Assembly (NCBI GenBank): GCA_964603945.1
Contig: CAZRWP010000002.1
Span: 123,880-187,879, forward strand
Direction of reading: 5' to 3'
Origin: an uncultured Pseudomonadales bacterium
GTDB lineage: Bacteria; Patescibacteriota; Microgenomatia; UBA1400; UBA1396
Length of the DNA: 64,000 bases
This document shows, in pieces, positions 2,344 through 43,653 of the stretch. Each line of letters starts with the position of its first letter. The first letter of the stretch is position 1. The notes under the pieces were generated by a model. That model did no database searches. It was given only the letters and a program-made list of their open reading frames with translations, and was not told the origin of the DNA. The position numbers were made by a program, and so were the translations under genes.

Positions 2344-4215
2344 CTACTCCCACTCAGTTGTAGCTGGCGGCTTGCCAGTGAGGTCATAAGCAACTCGGCT
2401 AATACCAGGGACTTCCGCTAAGATCCGATCAACCATTTTATTAACAACATTTATTGAGATCTGTTTGCCTGGAGTAGCTGGAATTCCGGTCATAAAGTCA
2501 TTGGTGATAATGGTGCGGATCACGATAGTTCTTGAGCCAGGTTGATCAAAGCCGACCGGAATTAAAATGACAGGAGCTTGACTAATCTGGCGAATTTCGC
2601 CAGATTTAAGTAACTCTTGGGTGACAATATCATCCGCCCGTCTAAGTTGTTCAATTACTGGTGGTTGAAGTTTAGTTGGCGTGATCTCGGTAACTGGTTG
2701 AGTCAGAGTCGGACCAAACAAGTAGACCACGCGATTAAGCTGATGAATAGTTTTAGGCAATTTCTTGGCTAGTTCCATTAAGATAGGCCAGTCTGGTTTG
2801 CCGGAAATGGCGGCGGCGTAACTGTAGGTACGGCCGTCGCCTTGGACACCAACCGAACGGACCGGTAATAAGGAAATTTGATTATTATTGGTAGCAAATT
2901 TTTTCAATTCTTGATCAATCTTGTCAAAATCTGGGGTGATATAAGGTTCATCAGCACACAGAATTCGGATGGCTAAGCCGGGTCCTGGAAATGGATGGCG
3001 CCAAACAATTTCAGCGGGCAAACCAAGTTGCTCGCCTAGAATGCGCACCTCGTCTTTATGATAATCCGCTAAAGGTTCAATAATTTTTCCTTGACTTCGC
3101 AGTTGGCGGACAGTTGAGGTATCGTTGTGGTGAGTTTTGATTACTTCTGCCTTGCTGGTTACACCGCTTGACGCACTCTCGATCAAATCCGGACGCAAAG
3201 TACCTTGAACCAAAAAAGTATTGTCAGTTGGAAGGTTGAGCCTTTTGACTTCCCGCTCAGTAATTTTCATAAAGGTGTCGCCAATGATGTTGCGCTTCTC
3301 TTCTGGGTTAATAGTCTGATCTAAGCGGGCGGTTTGTTTTCCGTTTAAAGTGGTTTGAGCAGACAGAAAATCTTGAGTGGCATCCACAACCGTTAGCTTT
3401 AAGCCAAATTGCTTGAGTGATTTGCTAACAGCTGAGCTTTCATTTTGGCGCATGAAGCCAGTATCAATATGCAAAGCAAACACTCGGTCGGCACCAATTG
3501 CTTTAGTCACTAATGCTGCCGCTACCGTTGAGTCCACGCCTCCGCTTACTAAAACTAAGGCAGTACCGTCACCAACCTTGGATTTAATTTCCTTGATTGC
3601 CTGTTGAACGCGGTCTTCCATGGTGTAATTGGGTTGAAGCTTAGCAACTTTAAATAGGAAGTTTGACAGTATCTCTTTTCCGTACTTAGTTAAGTCAACT
3701 TCTGGATGAAATTGGACTCCATACCATGGGTATATATTGTGTTCAATACCGGAAATAAGATCGTTAGACATCGCAATAACTCTAAAATTATAGGCTACTT
3801 TATTTACTGTGTCACCATGCGTTAATAAAACTTCTTGGGTTGGTGGCAGTGAGTCAAATATTAATGAGTCAGCAGTAGTTTTAATTTGAAAAACGCCATC
3901 TTCTCTCTGCTCTTTCCGCTCCACCGTTCCGCCATGAACATAATTCATCAGTTGCATACCAAAACAAATACCCAGAATTGGTTTATCCAGTTTTAATAAC
4001 TCCGGATCATATTTGGGAACGCTGGCACTGTAGACACTTTCCGGACCACCAGAAATAATAATTGCTCCAAATTTGATGAGTTCAGTTATTGGAGTATCTA
4101 GGGGCAAGATTACTGATTCCACCGCTAAATCTCTTATCCGGCGGTCAATTACTTTGGCATACTGAGCACCGGCATCCAAAATAGCTACTTGGAATTGTTT
4201 ATTCGAATCAGACAT
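2344..4215 (-). CDS. guaA: GMP synthase (glutamine-hydrolysing), long eukaryote-type form
   Basis: N-terminal class-I GATase (GICFGMQ, HPE). ATP-PPase P-loop SGGVDS. C-terminal bipartite dimerisation domain (GDGRTYSY...NRVVYLFGP...IRTIITNDFMTGIPATPG...GISRVAYDLTGKPPATTEWE). Length 623 aa versus about 515 for typical bacterial GuaA. Confidence 0.9.
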   Translation of the reverse strand: MSDSNKQFQVAILDAGAQYAKVIDRRIRDLAVESVILPLDTPITELIKFGAIIISGGPESVYSASVPKYDPELLKLDKPILGICFGMQLMNYVHGGTVERKEQREDGVFQIKTTADSLIFDSLPPTQEVLLTHGDTVNKVAYNFRVIAMSNDLISGIEHNIYPWYGVQFHPEVDLTKYGKEILSNFLFKVAKLQPNYTMEDRVQQAIKEIKSKVGDGTALVLVSGGVDSTVAAALVTKAIGADRVFALHIDTGFMRQNESSAVSKSLKQFGLKLTVVDATQDFLSAQTTLNGKQTARLDQTINPEEKRNIIGDTFMKITEREVKRLNLPTDNTFLVQGTLRPDLIESASSGVTSKAEVIKTHHNDTSTVRQLRSQGKIIEPLADYHKDEVRILGEQLGLPAEIVWRHPFPGPGLAIRILCADEPYITPDFDKIDQELKKFATNNNQISLLPVRSVGVQGDGRTYSYAAAISGKPDWPILMELAKKLPKTIHQLNRVVYLFGPTLTQPVTEITPTKLQPPVIEQLRRADDIVTQELLKSGEIRQISQAPVILIPVGFDQPGSRTIVIRTIITNDFMTGIPATPGKQISINVVNKMVDRILAEVPGISRVAYDLTGKPPATTEWE

Positions 4216-6243: not shown

Positions 6244-6777
6244 TCAATTTATCTTTTTACTTTTCCGCCACCCGTAACCAAAAACAACAGCAAACGCCAG
6301 ACTCACCACGGGATACCAATAACTTAAGGCTCCTACCGCAAATCCAAATAGAAAAGCAAAAGATAATATGACCGATGTTATTAGCATCACATGATAGGAG
6401 CGGTGTGCGGTATCACGATCAACCTCTTGCCAATCCGGAGTGAGATCCGGACCTACTCGTGATTCAGGCACATGCCCAATTACTTCATATTTGGTAATAA
6501 TTAACAAAATCGGTGACCAGCGTGCCCGAATGATGTCGCCACGTCTTACAGGTGTATGCACTTGGCTATCTGGAATGGAAAGTGAGCGATCCCAACGCTC
6601 GGGCGTGAGATAGGTTTGGCTGTAATCTTCCTGGCTATAGTCCAGCAACCCCAGCTTGGCCGGTTCAGGATCGTCCACACCGGCAATCGTAAATTCATCG
6701 GTAAATTGATACATCATGATCAGTGCCCGGATGATTTTGGCGGCAATTCGGAGAGCTAGTTCTTGGGCGATAGTCAT
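6244..6777 (-). CDS. hypothetical protein with C-terminal TM segments
   Basis: ORF with hydrophobic C-terminus (VILSFAFLFGFAVGALSYWYPVVSLAFAVVFGYGW); no recognisable motif. Confidence 0.4.
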   Translation of the reverse strand: MTIAQELALRIAAKIIRALIMMYQFTDEFTIAGVDDPEPAKLGLLDYSQEDYSQTYLTPERWDRSLSIPDSQVHTPVRRGDIIRARWSPILLIITKYEVIGHVPESRVGPDLTPDWQEVDRDTAHRSYHVMLITSVILSFAFLFGFAVGALSYWYPVVSLAFAVVFGYGWRKSKKIN

Positions 6778-6787
6778 GGGATTATAT

Positions 6788-7768
6788 TTATAAACTTTTT
6801 GCCAGATCCAAGAGACTTTCAGATTGTTGATGCCAATCTTTAGTTTCTTGACTATTATCTCCCTGGGATATCAACTGAGAAGTTTTTAAATAATAGGCGG
6901 CGTAAGATGCTCGAATTAGCACGGGGAGTGAATCAATTTCAGCGGAAGAAAGCGGATGAAAATCCAGATAAACGTCAATAACCTCCGTCATTATTTGTGA
7001 ACGGTTGTGCCAATTATCTTCACTTAAACAAAACCAAGCTAAATAGGTAGATAAATCAACGACTTTTAAATCATGACTCATGCAACCAAAATCTAAAATA
7101 CAATACTGTCCCGCTAAATTACGCAAAACATGTTTGCGTTGCATATCGCCGTGAATGACACTTTTAGAAAAATTGCTGGTGTCAAGGTTGCGTAATTCGT
7201 TATCCACGATAGCCACTTTTTCTTTAACTATGAGGGATATATCTGCCGAGGAAGCATCAAATTCTTTAGCAAGATTTTTGTTCCCCCAATCATCGTAAGC
7301 TTCTGTCACCGGAAAAGTTAGGGTATTTAAACGGGCTAAGTACTCAGAAATTTCTTTCATTTCTTCAAGCTGAGGGGTGCGGTATTTATAATCTTCTCCA
7401 TTCCAAAAACGTGTTAAGTAATAAGGGATGGCGGTTAAATCATGATACTGACTGAAGTAGTCACCATGAGAATTAGGAATTAACTCAAGCACCGGCACAC
7501 CTACCTTAGGAGCTTCAACTAGGATCTTAATCAAGTCGGATATGTTTTCTTTTTGCCGATTTGATTCAAAAATCTTGAGTACATAATTGCCGTTTTCACA
7601 AATGAGGACAAAGTTAGCTGCTTCGTACCCTTCAACAATTGGCTTGACCGATTGAATAGCTCCAATCTTTGAGTAAGTGCTAATTAGCGAATTTAAAAAG
7701 TCGGAAAATGATGCCGTTAGCGCGGTTCGGCGTAGGAGCTGATCAACTTCTTTGCTATTAGCAAACAT
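6788..7768 (-). CDS. phosphotransferase family protein (APH/choline-kinase-like protein kinase fold)
   Basis: Catalytic loop HGDMQRKHVLRN (HGD..N) and ILDFGCMSHD (DFG-like); about 326 aa. Confidence 0.6.
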   Translation of the reverse strand: MFANSKEVDQLLRRTALTASFSDFLNSLISTYSKIGAIQSVKPIVEGYEAANFVLICENGNYVLKIFESNRQKENISDLIKILVEAPKVGVPVLELIPNSHGDYFSQYHDLTAIPYYLTRFWNGEDYKYRTPQLEEMKEISEYLARLNTLTFPVTEAYDDWGNKNLAKEFDASSADISLIVKEKVAIVDNELRNLDTSNFSKSVIHGDMQRKHVLRNLAGQYCILDFGCMSHDLKVVDLSTYLAWFCLSEDNWHNRSQIMTEVIDVYLDFHPLSSAEIDSLPVLIRASYAAYYLKTSQLISQGDNSQETKDWHQQSESLLDLAKSL

Positions 7769-14523: not shown

Positions 14524-17500
14524 ATGTTTGGTGTTGCCAGGGGTGTCATCTATCAAAAGACTGAATTCATGATTAGTAAATTAAACATTCTAAACCATAC
14601 AATTAATCGACTGCCTAAAATTGGTAAAGTTTTCTCGATAACGCTACTTGCCTTAACTTTAGGAGTCTTATTTTCAAGTTCAATTTCACAAGTAAAAGCC
14701 GAGCCATTAGTAGGTGAACTATCTTTTGACTCTACCGCTATAAATGTGACCGAAGGTGCGAATAACACCTATAGTATAGTCTTATTAAGCCAGCCAGTTA
14801 GTGATGTAGTTGTAACCTTAAGTCATGATGGCGAAATTTCGGTAGACAAAGACTCTGTGACCTTTACTGATTCTAATTGGGGAACGCCACAGATCATAAC
14901 GGTCACAGGTACTACTGATAATAAAGTTGAAGGGTCACACGATAGCACTATCACTCATTCTATTGCCACCGATACCGAAGTGGCCGAAGTCGTGGTTACA
15001 ATTGCAGATGCTACAGAAGCTGGTTATACGATACCAACCTCCAACTTTGAATTGGCCGAAAATAATCAAAGTGTCACTCGTGAAGTTGTATTGACCGCAC
15101 AACCAATTAATGACGTGGTATTTTCACTTACCTCTACCAATCCAGATAGGGTTATTGTAACGCCAGCAACTCTAACCTTTACAAATGCTAATTGGAGCAT
15201 CCAGCAAGAAATTTCTATTGCTTCTGTGGATGATTATATTCAGCAAACTTCTCCCGTAACAGCTGATATAAGTATTGGAATTGACGATGATAATAGTGAT
15301 CCACTTTGGGCGGATTTAACAGATAGTTCTTTTACCGTAACTCTCACCGATAACGATACCGCCGGCGTGACCGTTTCACCCACCTCCGTAAGTACCACTG
15401 AAGGTGGCGACACCGACGAGTACACAGTTAAACTGGACTCCCAGCCAACTGGCAACGTGGTAATTAACGTCATCCCAGACGGCCAAAGCTCCACCGATAA
15501 GTCAACGCTAACCTTTACCGCTGGCAATTGGGACTCCGACCAGACGGTTACGGTAACTGCGGTGGATGACACTTTAATTGAAGGCAACCACGCCTCCACC
15601 ATTACCCATGAAATTAACACCGCCTCTACCGATGACGCTCTTTATGACTCTTTAGACTCTCTAACGATTGTGACTAATAATATTTCAGATAACGACAATC
15701 CTGGCTTTTCTTTAAGCACGAAAAATTTGTCCGTAGAGGAAAATGGTGGCACCAATACTTTCTCCGTAGTTTTGTCCGCCCAGCCACAAGGCACCGTTAA
15801 CTTTGCTTTAGTTAGCAGTAGTACTGATGAGGCGACCGTTTCTCCGACCTCCATAACTTTTACTAACGCTAACTGGGATGAGGCGCAAGTTGTGACCGTG
15901 ACCGGCGTAGATGATGACCACCTCGGTAATGACACTGCCCAAATTAGCGTTAGCGTTGACAGTTCTGGATCTGACGCTAACTGGGACTCACTACCCACAG
16001 ACTCAGTTGATATTTTGCTCCTAAATAATGACGAGGCCGGCGTGACCGTTTCACCCACCTCCGTAAGTACCACTGAAGGTGGCGACACCGACGAGTACAC
16101 CTTGGTCTTAACTGCCCAACCCTCGTCGGAGGTAATAATTGATATCTCCCCAGACGACCAAAGCTTAGTAGATCCTAACCAAGTTACCTTTACTACTGGC
16201 AACTGGAACATAGCCCAAACCATTACCGTATCTGCAAATGATGACACGCTTCTGGAGCCGACTCACTCTAGTACTATTTCTCACAGTCTAAGTGGTGACA
16301 CTGACTTTAGTGAAGTTTCCATTAGTAGCGTTACTAACACCATTACAGACAATGACCAAGGTGCCATTGAAGTAGAAAGCACGTCTTTAGTTGTTGGTGA
16401 AAATGGTGGTGAAGGCTCGATTGCAGTTCGTCTAACTCAGCCTCCCACCGCTAGCGTGGTCGTCCAAGCGGTTTCTACTGACACTAGTGAGGCAACTGTT
16501 TCTCCTAGTGAACTCACCTTTACCACGGACAATTGGCAAGATTACCAGAACTTTTTAGTTGTGGGTGTAGATGACAATATTGACCGCAACGACAGCACCA
16601 CTATTTCCTTAAACATTGATGAAACCCGTTCTCCAGAAGAGTGGCAAGGCACGGACAGTGTCCAAGTAGAGATCTCTCTCACCGATAACGATACCGCCGG
16701 CGTGACCGTTTCACCCACCTCCGTAAGTACCACTGAAGGTGGCGACACCGACGAGTACACAGTTAAACTGGACTCCCAGCCAACTGGCAACGTGGTAATT
16801 AACGTCATCCCAGACGGCCAAAGCTCCACCGATAAGTCAACGCTAACCTTTACCGCTGGCAATTGGGACTCCGACCAGACGGTTACGGTAACTGCGGTGG
16901 ATGATGTAACGGTAGAAGGCACACATAGTAGTACTATCAATCACGAAATTAATACCAGCGACACTGAAGATTCTGTCTATTTAGAACTAGGTTCGTTATC
17001 TCAAGTAGCCAATAACATTACGGATAATGATAGTCCTGCTTACACTCTGTCAGATGAATCTACTTCAATTACTGAAGGGAGTTCTCAAGTTATAAGTATT
17101 AATTTGCAAACCCGCCCAACTTCAACTGATTCACCAATAAAACTAGAAATAAATTCTTCAGATACTAATGAAGCAAGTGTTGACCCCTCATTTGTTGAGT
17201 TTACCTATGACAATTGGAACACGCCAAAAAACTTTACGATTTATAGTATCGAAGACTACGTAGTACGTAGTGATACGGCTACTATTTCCATCTCACCAGC
17301 TGAGACTAATCCGACTAGCTGGAAAGGGGATCAGCTAGCTGATAAACAAATTAATGTCAGTTTTATTGACAATGACGTGCCTGCTTTTAGCGTTAGCCAG
17401 TTAGATGTGGGTATAGCTGAAGGAGATTCAGATACGGTTGAAGTTATGCTTGATGTAGCTCCGGAAAACCAAGTTGCATTGACTGTAGCTAGCAGTAATC

Positions 17501-26501: not shown

Positions 26502-27230
26502 CTATTCCGGATAACATCCCCAATTTTCGTACCAATTGTACCCTTCTAAGTTTTGGGTACAGCAATCTACGTCGTTACCAGCTGAACACTCGGTTGGGCA
26601 TATTCCATCAGATTCAGCACTACAGCTGGCCATTGATTTGGGATAACATCCCCAGTTTTCAAACCAATGGTAATCGGAAAGTTTTTGGTCACAGCAATCA
26701 GCATCGTTACCGGCTGAACAATACCAGTGGCAAATTCCGTCTGCTTGAGCAGAGCATAATAGCTCCTTGGGATAGCACCCCCAATTTTCATACCATTTAT
26801 AGTCTGATCTGTTTGAGCAACAATCATTATCGTTTCCAGCGGTGCAGTTGCTAGGACAAATGCCATCACTAACAGCTGAGCACTTTTGTATAGGTGTTGG
26901 AATGACTACTGGCTTTGATGTTGGTTTGCGAGTCGGTTCTGAGACAGGAACAAGTGGTGCTGAGTATGGTTTTTGAGTAGTTGCGGGTTTTGGTTCCGGT
27001 GCGGCTGGTTTAGGTGCGGTTGGAGTATTTCCTCCCCCATGACAATGTCGTTCATTCCAAGGTACGCCCCATTCGTCACAATTTGTCCGACAGTAGTGAC
27101 AGCCATCCGAGGCCGTCCTGCCAGGATGGGCCAAAGTAGATGTTGAAAACGTAAACAAGAAAGCTAAAACTGCAAGATATATAAGGATAATCTTAGTCAC
27201 TATGGTTTTAGTATAACCTGAAATACCCAA
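26502..27230 (-). CDS. secreted Cys-rich protein with triplicated 7-Cys roughly 40-aa module
   Basis: Signal peptide. PT-rich linker. Three tandem repeats CSA.SDGICP.NC.AGND.DCC.......Y.WYENWGCYP[KE]. Confidence 0.6.
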   Translation of the reverse strand: MGISGYTKTIVTKIILIYLAVLAFLFTFSTSTLAHPGRTASDGCHYCRTNCDEWGVPWNERHCHGGGNTPTAPKPAAPEPKPATTQKPYSAPLVPVSEPTRKPTSKPVVIPTPIQKCSAVSDGICPSNCTAGNDNDCCSNRSDYKWYENWGCYPKELLCSAQADGICHWYCSAGNDADCCDQKLSDYHWFENWGCYPKSMASCSAESDGICPTECSAGNDVDCCTQNLEGYNWYENWGCYPE

Positions 27231-29407: not shown

Positions 29408-29800
29408 TTACGCTCTGTTCTCCCCTTCAACTTCAACTTGAAAGCCACCGTAAGCCATCCGTTTCATGTCAAAAGGCATTGCCATGTCTTTATATTTATC
29501 TGCCTGATTATTCATTTCTGCCATGACTTTTGCATTAACCTCGTCTCGATGAGCTTTTGATTTAAAGACAATAAAAGAAAACCAAACTGTTTCATCAAGT
29601 GTGGCGCCAGCCATTTCAGGGAATGCCCGAGCTTTTTCGCCACCCATTTCCTGAGGGATCAGATCATCACCACGGCATTCATAGTATTCAAGCGCACCAT
29701 TTTTCAGCCACGTATCACGGCCGTCTTCTGCCATTTTCTTATATGCTTCAGCTTTGTCATTGGGAACTACTAAAACAAATCCATCTACATATTTGGTCAT
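29408..29800 (-). CDS. DUF1428 family protein
   Basis: MTKYVDGFVLVVPNDKAEAYKKMAEDG... matches the recalled DUF1428 family. Start placed at the internal Met, which has a GGAGGT RBS 6 nt upstream. Confidence 0.5.
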   Translation of the reverse strand: MTKYVDGFVLVVPNDKAEAYKKMAEDGRDTWLKNGALEYYECRGDDLIPQEMGGEKARAFPEMAGATLDETVWFSFIVFKSKAHRDEVNAKVMAEMNNQADKYKDMAMPFDMKRMAYGGFQVEVEGENRA

Positions 29801-29887
29801 ACAAACCTCCGCCTCATAAGTGTCTTCTAAATTCAGCATAGGTTATTAAAGAGAAAGAATAATAAGAATCAGCTAAGAAATGAGTAA

Positions 29888-30253
29888 GTAGAGTCAGACC
29901 GTACATGCACAACAATAATATGGCGAATTACTGAGGACGACTATGACAAATATGACAGTCAGTTCCGTGATGAGCTGGCTGATATAGACGCACGACTCAG
30001 AATGTTACAAGAAGCTGACGATCAGTTCTTTGTCTCGGCTAAATACATTCTTGAGCTTTCCAAAAGAGCGAAAGAATTATTCGAAAGTTCGAAAATCGAG
30101 CAAAGACGCCAAATTATCAAACTGGTACTTTCGAACCTAACATTAGAGGGTAAAAAATTGCGATATGAAGCCGTTAAACCATTCGACACAATCTTAAATT
30201 GTGCTGATGGTCAACGATGGCTCCCCCGCGAGGATTCGAACCTCGAACCTTGA
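29888..30253 (+). pseudogene. remnant of a recombinase C-terminal region (likely large serine recombinase tail), no start codon, reading into the tRNA-Asn 3' end
   Basis: Frame open from 29888 with the first ATG at 30002. Translation ...ITEDDYDKYDSQFRDELADIDARLRMLQEADDQFFVSAKYILELSKRAKELFESSKIEQRRQIIKLVLSNLTLEGKKLRYEAVKPFDTI... is coiled-coil/recombinase-tail-like. The last 12 codons are encoded by the tRNA. Confidence 0.35.
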
Positions 30254-30292
30254 AGTTAACAGCTTCCTGCTCTACCATTGAGCTACAGGGGA
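30218..30292 (-). tRNA. tRNA-Asn (GTT)
   Basis: Hand fold: acceptor UCCCCUG/CGGGGGA, D-arm GCUCAAUGGUAGAGC, anticodon loop CUGUUAA, T-arm CGAGGUUCGAAUCCUCG, CCA encoded. 5' U1 as in E. coli tRNA-Asn. Confidence 0.85.
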
Positions 30293-30454
30293 TCGGTTGT
30301 TAATGAACAGGCCTAATTATACCCAATTTAGTCAGGTTTCCAAATGGGGATTTGTTTCTTCAAAGTTTGAATTAATTTTGTCTATCAATTATCTTTCTCC
30401 ACTTCTTCTCTAAAAAATTACTGACCTCCAACTCCGCCAGCAGGCGGCGCACAA

Positions 30455-31504
30455 TTATCTTCCCCCATCCTCTAGCCCCGCTAGCAGGCGGCGCAAGCCT
30501 TCAGCACTATTGGAGGTCAGATCACCTGACTGCATCGGCAAATATTCCCGATATGCCGTAATGACCATGCTCACCCAATAGCCGCCGGTATGCTGGTTTA
30601 GGTATTTGGCCAGGTTGGGATTGCTCAGATCAATGCCCTGCCGCTGAGCCATGAATTCAACTTGGTCATTGGCGCTATTTAGAATAGCCAGAGGATGATA
30701 CTGCATGGCAAAGTAGGCGGAGCGCAAGGCTAACATTTGTTTAGAACTGCCCCAAACCGGGTGCTGGGCGATTAATTCGTGAATGTGCTCTTGTTTTTCT
30801 GGCACAACAGTTAGGCGCCCCTCAGCTGACAATAGTTCTTGGTACAAATACTCAAAAAAACTATGATCATTGACACGATTATTGCCAATTCGGACGTAGC
30901 GATTTCTGGTTGGCAAGATGGTGTCCTGGAGATTACCCTTTTGCAAGACCTGAATGGTGTCATCTTTGGTCAATCCAGCATAAAAACCGGCTAAGATGGC
31001 AAATCCCGCCCCATAATCCCGGGCAACCTGACGTAAGGTTCGTTCCCGATGTTTCCTATCCAGCTGAGCTAACTCTTGGCCAAAGACCGGCCAAATGGCT
31101 TGTTTTTGGTGAGTATTTAGAGGCTGCTGAGTAGTAATTGCCAGACGTCTGGATGGCAGTTGGCGGCTTTCACGCACGACATCCGAAAACTCGGCTGTTA
31201 TATTGAGAGGATTTTGCCTTAGTTCACGAATCAGGTCGCCAAGCACATCTTCATACACTCGATGCTGAGCGCCATGGGCGGAATAAGTTCGCGGATCCTG
31301 AATATCCTTGGCATTTTCAAATATCTGAATAAGTAAAGGGTTAAGCAGCTGCCGCTTGGAAAACCTAACGTGAGGAATTTCACGGTTTTGGTACTTAGCC
31401 AGAATGGTTCTATTTAACAACGGAAACATCTGCTCTAACTGCTCCATAATTGGCAGAATCAGCTCCTGAAATCTAGTTTCCTCTTCCGTGGGACGTGGTC
31501 TCAT
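30455..31504 (-). CDS. hypothetical protein (350 aa), uncharacterised
   Basis: Start placed at MRPRPTEEETRF; the ORF-track upstream extension is hydrophobic junk. No recognisable motif. Confidence 0.45.
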   Translation of the reverse strand: MRPRPTEEETRFQELILPIMEQLEQMFPLLNRTILAKYQNREIPHVRFSKRQLLNPLLIQIFENAKDIQDPRTYSAHGAQHRVYEDVLGDLIRELRQNPLNITAEFSDVVRESRQLPSRRLAITTQQPLNTHQKQAIWPVFGQELAQLDRKHRERTLRQVARDYGAGFAILAGFYAGLTKDDTIQVLQKGNLQDTILPTRNRYVRIGNNRVNDHSFFEYLYQELLSAEGRLTVVPEKQEHIHELIAQHPVWGSSKQMLALRSAYFAMQYHPLAILNSANDQVEFMAQRQGIDLSNPNLAKYLNQHTGGYWVSMVITAYREYLPMQSGDLTSNSAEGLRRLLAGLEDGGR

Positions 31505-31570
31505 GCAAAAATTTTGCAACCAGAGTGTAAAAGTTGGGTAAAAGTATTTTTTGTCGTATATACTGAAATT

Positions 31571-32238
31571 ATGAAGAATGCAAAAGCTGAACACCAATCC
31601 CCTATTGATGTGGATGACATAGAAACCAAAGGTTTCGATAGCCCAGAAACACAAAGAGATCATGCCTTAACAAGGCCCATGATTGATGTAAGGGGCAATC
31701 TTGCTCTTCCTAGTAGGCAAGAGGTTCACAGACTTTCGGTTCGGCAAATTGTAAAAAAATATCTGATAATAAAGAAGAAATTAAGAAGGCGTTTAAAAGT
31801 AAAAAGGAATTTCAACAAGCCATTGCAGAACTTTGGAGAAAACGCGGATTGGTTTTAAAGGATCTTGAGCCTCTTATTGATGCCTGGGATGAAGAAGTTA
31901 AAGAGGCAGAAGTATTTGACATACATATTGAGAGCCCACTGAGATTGGCTCATGAAATTAGACCAATACTCGATAAAATTAAATCTAGATCCGAAGTAAT
32001 CCATCTCGATAAATCAAAATATCGTGGATCTAACGATGAAAAACAAGAATTAATTTTACGATTAGATGAAGTAATTAAACAAATTAAGCCTGACAAATTT
32101 TCGCCTAAACAACTTGATAGGTTGAAAGATGCGGTGGAAATATTAAGACTTGAAGGTAGCTATGAGCCTCTAGAAAATTTTGTAAATAATTTAGTAAATC
32201 CTATAGAGGCAAAAGCCAGGCAAGCTCGCAATAATTAA
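31571..32238 (+). pseudogene. hypothetical protein split by a -1 frame change at an A7 run (ORFs 31514..31858 and 31849..32238)
   Basis: Frame A reads MKNAKAEHQSPID...RQIVKK. Frame B is protein-like from ...ISDNKEEIKKAFKSKKEFQQAIAELWRKRGLVLKDLE... Adding one A to the A7 run (about 31753-31760) joins them into one protein of about 220 aa. Confidence 0.45.
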
Positions 32239-32822
32239 TCAGAGAAAAATTCTTCTCCATTATCGCCTGCGGTTGCCTTAAAAGCCTGCTCGTTTTCTAG
32301 CCAAAAAATCTCGGCCTCTTGGGGGTCGTCTTGGCGCAAGGTCCAGCGGGCAATTAAATCCAGATAAGTGCGGGCGACTCCTAACTCATGGGCCAAGCGA
32401 AACTCGGCCAACAAGGCCTGACTGTGGCCAAAGTCACGGGCTGACCGGTCTTTGTGGCGGCGGGACCTCAGACCATATTGACTGATGTCGCTCCAGGCTT
32501 CAGCAATTTCATGCTCCTGCGTGATGCAGATGAGATCAGTATTGTCTTTACCATCAAGTTGAAAAACTGCCTGGTTGATGAAAAGTTGTGGATCTTTAAT
32601 AAAAATACGGCCGTTTTTGGTTTCAATATCGTAATTAACCCAGGCAATCGAAAATTCACCGGAAGTGTCAAATAAATCTAAATCTTCTGGTGGAATGACA
32701 ATCGTGTGATTGCGGAAAAACTCGTAAAACTTGGCTTTGCTGGCAGCTGAAAAATCAGTCAGCACCAGCGTAGTGGTCTGATCACTTAGTGTTTCCGAAT
32801 TGGTCTGGGCGGCTAAAGACAT
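32235..32822 (-). CDS. hypothetical protein (195 aa)
   Basis: ORF with no recognisable motif. Its stop overlaps the stop of the upstream convergent gene. Confidence 0.45.
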   Translation of the reverse strand: MSLAAQTNSETLSDQTTTLVLTDFSAASKAKFYEFFRNHTIVIPPEDLDLFDTSGEFSIAWVNYDIETKNGRIFIKDPQLFINQAVFQLDGKDNTDLICITQEHEIAEAWSDISQYGLRSRRHKDRSARDFGHSQALLAEFRLAHELGVARTYLDLIARWTLRQDDPQEAEIFWLENEQAFKATAGDNGEEFFSD

Positions 32823-32909: not shown

Positions 32910-34004
32910 TTACTCTAAAAAGTCTTGCAGGCGTTTGCGCATGCTGGGGTGGCGGAGTTTGCGCAAGGCCTTGGCCTCAATTTGACGAATTCGTTCACGA
33001 GTGACGCCAAACTTTTTGCCAACTTCTTCTAAGGTCATCGGGCGGGAGCTGTTTAAGCCAAACCTCATCCGCACCACCTTGGCTTCGCGGTCGGTCAGGG
33101 TTTGCAAAACGCGTTCAATGTCTTCTTTGAGCATGCGATTGGCCGTTGAGTCATAAGGCGAGAGCTGAGTTTCATCAGCTATAAAGTCACCTAGATAACT
33201 GTCGCCATCTTCACCGATTGGGGTTTCCAATGAAGTGGTCTTTTGGGAGATCTTGAGGATTTCACGGACGCGATCAGGCTCGATCTCCATGGCTGAGGCA
33301 ATCTCTTCCGGTAATGGCTCGCGGCCAAGTTCCTGCATCAGCTGACGCGAAATCCGCATCAGCTTATTAATGGTTTCAACCATGTGTACCGGAATACGAA
33401 TCGTACGGGCTTGGTCAGCAATAGCGCGGGTAATCGCCTGACGAATCCACCAGGTAGCGTAGGTACTGAACTTGAAGCCTTTGCGCCAATTGTATTTTTC
33501 AACCGCGCGGATTAAACCTTTATTGCCCTCCTGAATCAGATCCAGGAAAGTCATGCCGCGGCCAATATACTTTTTAGCAATGGACACAACCAAGCGCAAG
33601 TTAGCGTCAATCAGATGTTGTTTAGCCTTGGCATCAGCGGCTTCATTGCGCTGAGCCAGGTCAATTTCTTCCGTCCGGTTAAGTAGAGGAATCCGACCAA
33701 TTTCTTTAAGATACATTCGGACCGGGTCAGAAATATTGCTGCTCTCCAAAGAGGCGAGCACTTCCAGTTCCTGCTCCATGTCGGTGAGCTCTTTGTCTTC
33801 ATCAGCTTTGCCACTAGTGGAAACACTTTCAAAAACGTCGATACTTTCTTGGTCCAGGGTGTGGTAAAAATCGTCAAGTTTATCCAAACTATTTTCAGGC
33901 TCAGTAAAAACAGCCAGCACATCTTCCTGGGCAATAAAGCCCTGTTTACGGGCTTTTTCTAATAATTGCTGAACCAGCTTATCAGCGGTTGTGAGTGAGG
34001 GCAT
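32910..34004 (-). CDS. rpoD: RNA polymerase primary sigma factor (sigma-70)
   Basis: Region 2 [55 protein letters not shown]. Region 4 [15 protein letters not shown]...[30 protein letters not shown]. Confidence 0.92.
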
Positions 34005-35930: not shown

Positions 35931-35970
35931 GTTCGGTTTAAGGCTAGTATAACGTAAAAAATGCAGGGTG

Positions 35971-36056
35971 AAGGATCATCCTTGCCCCTTCTCTTGCCTG
36001 GAAGGATCATCCTAGGATGATCCTTCTTGAGGAAACTAACCGCAAGGATGATCCTT
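35971..36056. promoter_or_regulatory. four copies of a 13-bp motif AAGGATCATCCTT / AAGGATGATCCTT (including one perfect 24-bp palindrome) in the dnaG upstream region
   Basis: Copies at about 35971-35983, 36002-36014, 36013-36025 (inverted, forming AAGGATCATCCTAGGATGATCCTT) and 36044-36056. The dnaG start is at 35930. Confidence 0.45.
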
Positions 36057-43565: not shown

Positions 43566-43653
43566 TGGCGGAGGGAGTGGGATTCGGACCCACGGTATCT
43601 TGCGATACGGCGGTTTAGTAAACCGCTGCACTAGACCACTATGCGATCCCTCC
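43566..43653 (-). tRNA. tRNA-Ser (class II, long variable arm); anticodon reads ACT in the hand fold
   Basis: Acceptor GGAGGGA/UCCCUCC, G73, CCA encoded, D-arm GCA-UAGUGGUCUAG-UGC, anticodon stem GCGGU/ACCGC with loop UUACUAA, 17-nt variable arm, T-arm GUGGG-UCCGAAU-CCCAC. Anticodon needs tRNAscan confirmation. Confidence 0.7.

Follow-up and report, generated by a model that had tools for sequence, protein, structure and literature searches.

Comparative analysis of a 64-kb stretch of contig CAZRWP010000002.1 (64,000 nt; hereafter the window) leads us to the view, to which we assign a probability of about 0.75, that a start-less open reading frame (ORF) running into the 3' end of a tRNA-Asn gene is the stump of a large serine recombinase (LSR) from a deleted island, and that the three genes between this tRNA gene and rpoD (p349, a "middle gene" and p195) form a species-specific, selected set and not the cargo of that island. 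All sequence features listed in the initial annotation of this locus (the start-less ORF, the inverted repeats and the three ORFs) were found again, while their interpretation had to be changed in several respects. The window was compared with contigs of related species and with conspecific contigs from other samples, the latter reached by exact-protein look-up of p349 and of the DUF1428 protein, of which an identical copy occurs on 10 contigs. Comparison contigs are denoted by L and a number; coordinates of the features are collected in Table 1.

The recombinase stump

The start-less ORF is preceded by a TAA codon (29885-29887) and ends with TGA (30251-30253); its earliest start codon is the ATG at 30002, and with its final 12 codons (WLPREDSNLEP*) it reads the tRNA-Asn 3' end in reverse complement. 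The earlier suggestion that this fragment is a recombinase remnant at a tRNA attachment (att) site was borne out: over 109 aa it is 97% identical (tblastn) to the C-terminus of an intact 497-aa LSR that stands at the same tRNA in L088 and exhibits the Resolvase, Recombinase (residues 186-264) and Zn_ribbon_recom (residues 282-326) domains. The gene order in L088 is rpoD (100% identical at the amino acid level), p195, p349 (99%), tRNA-Asn, the 497-aa LSR, an AlwI-type endonuclease and two methyltransferases, and its DNA homology to the window ends at window position 29923. In L002 and L003, p349 and the tRNA are the same and a second, unrelated LSR of 535 aa comes next; the homology of these contigs to the window ends at 30218. 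The tail of the L002 LSR exhibits 26% identity to the tail in the window (BLASTP, E-value 9e-13) and likewise ends with WLPREDSNLEP, and the C-terminal helical region of the window ORF is homologous to those of bona fide LSRs. A PHROG integrase family matched the tail weakly (E-value 0.011), and the Pfam search reported no match for the ORF. Neither the N-terminal sequence of the LSR nor its resolvase catalytic domain (PF00239), Recombinase domain (PF07508) or zinc ribbon (PF13408), all of which are found in the L088 protein, could be detected anywhere in the 64-kb window. Next to the tRNA 3' end there is a remnant in the window and an intact recombinase gene in L002, L003, L088, L093, L098 and L101. 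From these similarities we identify the start-less ORF as the leftover tail of an LSR.

The attachment core and the direction of insertion

The break points of homology between contigs with different islands fall at 30218-30228 and at 29926, and the conspecific contigs differ to the left of one or the other of these positions, i.e. they exhibit an island presence/absence polymorphism. The displaced junctions in L090, L115 (two), L117 and L118 have only GCTCCC(CCG) in common, preceded by an LSR tail or by native flank and followed by non-tRNA DNA of one of two types of element arm (GATGGTTGGTATGCGAAC... or GTTCATGAGCTTATTCGGAAT...); a displaced junction is present also in L095, from a more distant lineage. 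The T-stem of the tRNA varies between species with compensating changes on both strands, and because of this we regard it as host DNA; taken together with the shared GCTCCC junctions, this places the crossover in the core GCTCCCCCG. The LSR family accordingly uses the tRNA-Asn 3' end with a crossover within the 6-9 nt core GCTCCC(CCG), the integrated reading frames run into the tRNA, and the tRNA gene of the host supplies the last 10-13 codons of an integrated LSR. The displaced tails terminate differently (e.g. WLPVHELIRN... or WLPLLDSFHN...).

On the strength of these junctions we place the element DNA at this tRNA on its 3' side (window <30218), not towards rpoD. The direct repeat of the tRNA-Asn 3' end anticipated near 32.8 kb by the initial annotation was searched for and found neither there nor elsewhere in the 64-kb window, in which we found no second copy of the core and no element arm either. 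L118 and L119 exhibit the flank and the tail of the window followed by a core and a new arm, and we interpret them as a second element integrated beside the old stump. L115 contains two cores in tandem (3059-3096 and 6970-7008) with the same arm type after each, which we interpret as a tandem array of elements within a single conspecific contig.

The deletion scar and the probable emptied state of the window

In the window the recombinase tail abuts native DNA at 29926, with no cargo between the tail and this far boundary. Homology to the window reaches 29926 in L115, L117 and L121. L115 and L117 match it up to that position (...AATAATATGGCGA) and then proceed with TATTTACTAAAA... into an 859-nt segment with a gene for a 188-aa protein, which ends with GGGAATAAAAG(G/A)-GCTCCC, followed by element arms. 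Conversely, the similarity of the window to the intact LSR genes of L088, L092 and L093 begins at 29923-29927 and extends to the right only. The look-up with the DUF1428 protein revealed three states of the locus: L116 and L120 resemble the window, L118 and L119 possess the stump with the new arm, and L115 and L117 contain the 188-aa segment. The two parents of the deletion exhibit a short similarity (GCGATATTTACT vs GCGTATTACT).

Because we read the 188-aa segment as the native neighbour of the tRNA, the join in the window is best described as a deletion from 29926/29927 to LSR codon 389. The probable series of events is as follows. The native order in the species would be p349, tRNA-Asn, the 188-aa gene and the DUF1428 gene; the ancestor of the window strain would have carried an L088-type island, and a single deletion would have taken out the first 388 codons of the LSR together with the cargo and the 188-aa gene, so that intergenic DNA of the native chromosome (up to 29926) now adjoins codon 389 (from 29927). 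What remained would be an inert tail of 109 codons, in which the first start codon is found at 30002. The far end of an L088-type island is predicted to read 188-aa segment-GGGAATAAAAGG-GCTCCC(CCG)-element arm.

Two other explanations of the scar were tried and rejected. An att site inside the LSR gene at the scar (site L), similar to that of SSV1, is contradicted by the single copy of the tail in L093 and by the non-tail segment found at the same left junction in L115 and L117. The TGGC to the left of the scar was considered as a displaced CCA end of the tRNA; however, L115 and L117 reveal that TGGCGA belongs to the native flank.

Islands at tRNA-Asn in other strains and species

The island of L088 (4290-8484) encodes the AlwI endonuclease and methyltransferases, and island regions were found also in L090 (6511-16320), L091 (1486-9750) and L092 (7451-9803). 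Their cargo includes AlwI and HaeIII restriction-modification (RM) systems, the latter with SocA/Panacea, a type I RM system with HNH-WYL and PrimPol, as well as MazG, a Schlafen-like helicase and an Eco57I-like methyltransferase. The islands comprise several kb and are sometimes arranged in tandem. Judging from the gene content and the junctions, the tRNA-Asn 3' end can be regarded as an integration hot spot for LSR-borne, defence-rich islands.

The same tRNA gene exhibits peculiarities in two other contigs. In L093 (10300-10600; Ga0255343_1001390) ~208 nt interrupt tRNA-Asn in the region of the anticodon loop, and no tRNA is predicted there by ARAGORN; this interruption may be a tRNA intron. 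In L104, from another lineage (6600-6860 and 16100-16173), a displaced fragment, which comprises the tRNA sequence between the 3' end and the anticodon loop, is found together with an old LSR tail at a distance of 9.3 kb from the live tRNA-Asn gene; the same tRNA seems to be used there by another integrase, whose crossover would lie in the anticodon loop.

The genes between tRNA-Asn and rpoD

Every conspecific contig that covers the whole stretch from rpoD to the tRNA (L001, L002, L088, L089 and L116) contains both p195 and p349, regardless of the island, and L003-L007 contain them in part. Their dN/dS values in comparison with L089 are 0.11 for p349 and 0.03-0.04 for p195, and because of these values (0.11 and 0.04) we regard them as real genes under selection; both are under strong purifying selection. 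Synonymous divergence (dS) between the window and L089 reaches 0.34-0.42 in p349/p195 vs 0.024 in the adjacent rpoD (~15-fold). The divergence of the cassette is block-wise and stops at the stop codon of p349, while L088 differs only in the 3' half of p195; this pattern points to recombination between diverged haplotypes.

As the initial annotation had left open, the genes might have been syntenic core genes of the lineage, which they are not in related species. The cassette is absent from the rpoD-tRNA interval in L008, L038, L083, L091-L093, L096 and L097; the gap between rpoD and tRNA-Asn measures only 85-165 nt in L083, L096 and L097, and it contains other, unrelated genes in L008, L038, L091 and L092. 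The cassette is constant whichever island is found at the tRNA and absent in related species, and therefore appears to be species-peculiar and not tied to the recombinase element. We picture p195 and p349 as such a cassette, encoded on the same strand as rpoD, kept by purifying selection and probably closed by a terminator-like structure, after which the tRNA would have its own promoter. The middle gene would be an accessory insertion in some strains, inactivated in the window by a homopolymer frameshift. The frameshift lies in an A7 run (31753-31759), which is A8 in L002; an added A restores one ORF of 222 aa, in agreement with the frameshifted gene of roughly 220 aa proposed previously. The middle gene is missing in L004-L007, L088 and L089, in which p195 is directly followed by p349; next to the middle gene, the 3' half of p195 contains a tract with 6-9% divergence.

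Sequence searches of the three proteins for defence, toxin, nucleotidyltransferase, HEPN or Abi signals revealed none, so the prediction of a novel defence or toxin system found no support in them. Comparison of p349, the middle gene, p195 and the tail with Pfam, NCBIfam, PADLOC, PHROGs and PDB sequences returned nothing usable: the PDB sequence and profile searches reported noise only (symerythrin, E-value 0.12; a fibrinogen coiled coil, E-value 0.004), and PADLOC reported no match for p349 or p195 and only a match with an E-value of 0.029 for the middle gene. AlphaFold2 models built from single sequences had pLDDT values of 39-40 and were unusable for fold comparison. For p195, relatives with at least 88% identity were the only ones retrieved among 5.8 billion proteins by a word-indexed search, the deep HMMER search having been made for p349 only; for p349 the word-indexed search likewise retrieved near-identical relatives only. 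No homologues of the middle gene were found, including in a scan of viral contigs (the deep HMMER search was again limited to p349), and a viral-contig scan with the L088 LSR reported nothing.

The full HMMER search with p349 identified 17 representatives at E-value <= 1e-3 (the best with 35% identity and an E-value of 1e-54), similar over the full length and, in all but two cases, 330-375 aa long. The family exhibits the motif D..D..YS.HGAEH, with P28, H77, H81 and T316 invariant. The 16 members searched showed no match to Pfam, NCBIfam, PHROGs or PDB, and in PADLOC two unrelated single matches and no consistent one. The four relatives that could be placed stand singly among housekeeping genes (NusG/SecE, Cpn10, peptide deformylase, malic enzyme), with no partner gene shared among them; a 191-aa neighbour of one p349 relative was compared with p195 and is not its homologue. 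Our best guess is that p349 is a soluble, mainly helical protein that may bind a metal via the conserved His pair.

The structured region between p349 and the tRNA

The 11-bp arms CTGACCTCCAA (30421-30431) and TTGGAGGTCAG (30510-30520) and the two copies of GC[CT]AGCAGGCGGCGCA (30436-30451 and 30480-30495) described in the initial annotation are present; the region is however not intergenic as supposed there, since the p349 coding sequence occupies 30455-30520 with its final 22 codons. The 64 kb contain ~7 sites with a perfect inverted repeat of 11 bp or longer inside 120 nt, somewhat more than the ~2.5 expected by chance from Markov shuffles. The minus strand of 30400-30535 is predicted to fold into a branched structure (-52.6 kcal/mol, z -2.6). 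In L089 the one substitution in the 5' arm, C to T, turns the pair into G-U without breaking it, and the 115 nt that follow the stop codon of p349 show no change, with the adjacent coding DNA ~9% diverged. Rfam analysis of the window reported only the tRNA in this region. The region is best read as a putative terminator of p349 combined with a putative promoter of the tRNA.

Table 1. Coordinates of the features of the tRNA-Asn locus (window numbering; slashes mark joins)
Feature	Position	Strand	Remarks
DUF1428 gene	29408-29839	minus	Pfam PF07237, E-value 2e-27; native chromosomal flank in all conspecific contigs
Start-less ORF	29888-30253	plus	29927-30253 corresponds to the last 109 codons of an L088-type LSR
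Deletion scar (site L), TGGCGA/ATTACT	29921-29932		native DNA to 29926; LSR codon 389 from 29927; site L sequence CAACAGCGTATTACTGAGGATGAC
tRNA-Asn (GTT)	30218-30292	minus	ARAGORN; Rfam RF00005, 66.3 bits
Attachment core GCTCCCCCG	30220-30228		tRNA positions 66-74, end of the acceptor stem
Promoter-like site TTGGAA-16-TATAAT	30316-30343	minus	24 nt upstream of tRNA-Asn; best match in the region, 10/12
Terminator-like structure	30412-30520	minus	12-bp closing stem, 30509-30520 with 30421-30432; two small hairpins inside; then UAAUUUUUU
p349 (349 aa)	30455-31504	minus	small uncharacterised family, ~340 aa, HGAEH motif
Middle gene (222 aa if intact)	31571-32238	plus	strain-variable; frames 31571-31858 and 31849-32238
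p195 (195 aa)	32235-32822	minus	orphan
rpoD	32910-34004	minus	anchor of the interval; named "RNA polymerase primary sigma factor" in one source; dnaG next

Recurrent truncation at LSR codon 388/389

The tail in the window starts between QR and ITEDD, at DNA ...CAGC/GT/ATTACTGAGGAT (29923-29940). The same point of the LSR gene is the right end of deletions in L090 (5930), L091 (9926) and L094 (1232), whose left partners are unrelated: a 393-aa cargo gene of an L093-type element in L090, codon 63 of the same LSR gene in L091, and the inside of an unrelated gene in L094. The proteins P0002, P0003, P0006 and P0009 are 46-91% identical to the tail and switch to LSR sequence exactly at IT(E/D). If end points were distributed at random over a 1.5-kb gene, three more coincidences to within 3 nt would have a probability of roughly 1e-8. 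At least four deletions, independent of one another and found in different genomes, share this codon of the LSR as an end point. In two other LSR lineages the stumps begin ~43 codons later.

Possible causes are a recombinase acting on a pseudo-site of its own, a fragile site of short homology, or an old junction repeatedly overwritten by incoming tails. Site L resembles the tRNA-side half of attB (both exhibit GC-N8-GAGGAT), and three left partners end with ATGGC or AGGC, similar to the end of the LSR tail, GATGGC. We consider it unlikely that the stumps are self-made, i.e. that the LSR recombines an internal pseudo-site (codons 387-392) with sites on the left, so that a fixed 109-codon tail remains. 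The LSR might in that case delete its own catalytic domain together with the cargo, and the tails might persist as patches of homology or as inhibitory peptides.

Alternative explanations

The initial annotation viewed 29.9-32.8 kb as a single decayed islet with p349, the middle gene and p195 as novel defence or toxin cargo, and a number of observations agree with this: the short interval in L083, L096 and L097, hence the lineage-specific character of the 2.6 kb found here, the orphan or near-orphan status of the proteins, the high dS relative to rpoD together with the block-wise mosaic (loci under balancing selection can look so), and the use of this tRNA by defence islands in other strains. 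However, all element DNA observed lies on the 3' side of the tRNA, with breaks at 30218-30228 and 29926, p195 and p349 are the same in strains with different islands, and neither an att repeat nor a recombinase is found on the rpoD side. PADLOC reported no consistent match, the relatives of p349 stand without a conserved partner amid housekeeping genes, and the low dN/dS speaks against diversifying selection. We therefore abandon the notion of cargo of a decayed element for these genes, and regard a single islet as highly improbable. An ancestral p195-p349 cassette that was lost from the interval in the sampled relatives, and not inserted here, would account for its GC content, which is not unusual, and for the lack of insertion signatures; moreover, a p349 relative (26% identity) adjoins a malic-enzyme gene in L108, and the malic-enzyme gene of L091 is located three genes from rpoD. 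Eight relatives at several distances nonetheless all lack the cassette in this interval, and p195 has no detectable relative outside the species, which makes ancestral presence possible but rather unlikely.

The tail could also be a retained functional gene or a landing pad, either a coiled-coil peptide that acts against incoming LSRs or a patch of homology through which islands come and go by homologous recombination. Tails that lack the N-terminus and keep an open frame occur in many genomes (P0001-P0009, L090, L091, L094, L095 and L102-L106), and pairs of remnants differ mainly at synonymous sites (dS 0.3-0.68, omega 0.02-0.14). The tail DNA is ~90% identical between species whose rpoD DNA is ~72% identical, mismatches between the window and L088 rise away from the tRNA (1, 3 and 6 per 100-nt bin), and P0006 is a mosaic; the last two observations fit repeated recombination with incoming tails. 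Against a function speak the absence of a conserved start codon, the stop codons 1-2 codons before site L in L091 and L094, and the lack of a promoter-like site upstream of the tail in the window. Remnants and intact genes are furthermore intermixed, as expected for recent or repeatedly overwritten remnants, and we find a functional tail quite unlikely.

For the reading that we prefer, an LSR stump beside a selected, species-specific gene set, several points are unfavourable. The divergence of the tail is synonymous-biased as in the intact genes, which fits recent derivation or gene conversion, and may be compatible with the tail having a function of its own. The 188-aa segment counts as native only on account of its position in two contigs, with the shared flank on one side and a displaced core on the other. 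The sequence of the L088-type island stops short of its far end, so that the arm type and the junction with the 188-aa segment are predictions. The large structure at the end of p349 does not appear in the list of a simple terminator scan, its loop being over the limit of the scan. Finally, the best rpoD matches among species representatives, to unclassified metagenome-assembled genomes, reach 65-69%, with 599 relatives of rpoD reported by tblastn.

Comparison with known systems

Well-characterised serine integrases include those of phiC31, Bxb1 and A118/LI and the Ccr recombinases of SCCmec. The relatives in L088, L002 and L093 share with them the architecture of Resolvase, Recombinase, Zn-ribbon and helical C-terminal regions, and the intact relatives are likewise located at the edge of the element beside the att site, accompanied by cargo islands. 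Unlike in those systems, insertion takes place at the very 3' terminus of a tRNA gene, a kind of site usually targeted by tyrosine integrases, the reading frame runs 36 nt into the tRNA with a C-terminus that changes with the state of integration, and the window keeps only 109 of 497 codons, without a catalytic domain. Similarity to tRNA-linked islands with tyrosine integrases (P4-like islands, tandem island arrays) extends to integration at the tRNA 3' end, displaced tRNA ends that mark old junctions, tandem accretion, decayed integrase fragments and defence cargo; the differences are the serine family of the enzyme, the shared core of 6-9 nt and, in the window, the far-end repeat that would have been deleted with the island. 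In the archaeal virus SSV1 the integrase gene itself contains the att site and is split by the act of integration. Integrase fragments beside a tRNA gene are footprints of integration in both cases, but here the core falls within the last codons, intact integrated genes exist (L088 and L093), and the split at codon 388/389 would be due to a deletion that also removed native DNA. The putative terminator resembles intrinsic (Rho-independent) terminators in its GC-containing closing stem directly before a U run at the end of a gene and in the stem-preserving change in the diverged strain L089; this similarity is predicted from the sequence. It differs from them in being a branched structure of 100 nt and not a simple hairpin, and in that its 5' arm is coding.

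Other features of the window and of related contigs

ARAGORN predicted a tRNA-Ser with the anticodon ACT and an unusual A34 at 43566-43653 (minus strand; Rfam tRNA, 51.7 bits). A 242-aa cysteine-rich protein is encoded at 26502-27230 (minus strand) by a gene with three ~130-nt repeats, and three 229-nt direct repeats, two of them identical, are found at 15341-16904 with a spacing of 660-675 nt. A cluster of perfect inverted repeats of 11-16 bp is located just upstream of dnaG (35970-36047). In L118 (1685-2386) an IS1595-family transposase takes the place of the two genes for small membrane proteins beyond the DUF1428 gene.

Conclusions

Our literature searches retrieved no description of a system of this kind. 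At tRNA-Asn the site is used by serine and not by tyrosine recombinases in a poorly sampled lineage, with genes of the RM and defence type swapped between strains. If it is the enzyme that causes the recurrent truncation, integrative elements would have a novel route to fixation. The analysis also defines a small family of uncharacterised proteins under selection (p349, with the HGAEH motif), and it corrects the map of the locus, in that the mobile side of tRNA-Asn is the left one and the window strain would represent the "emptied" state.

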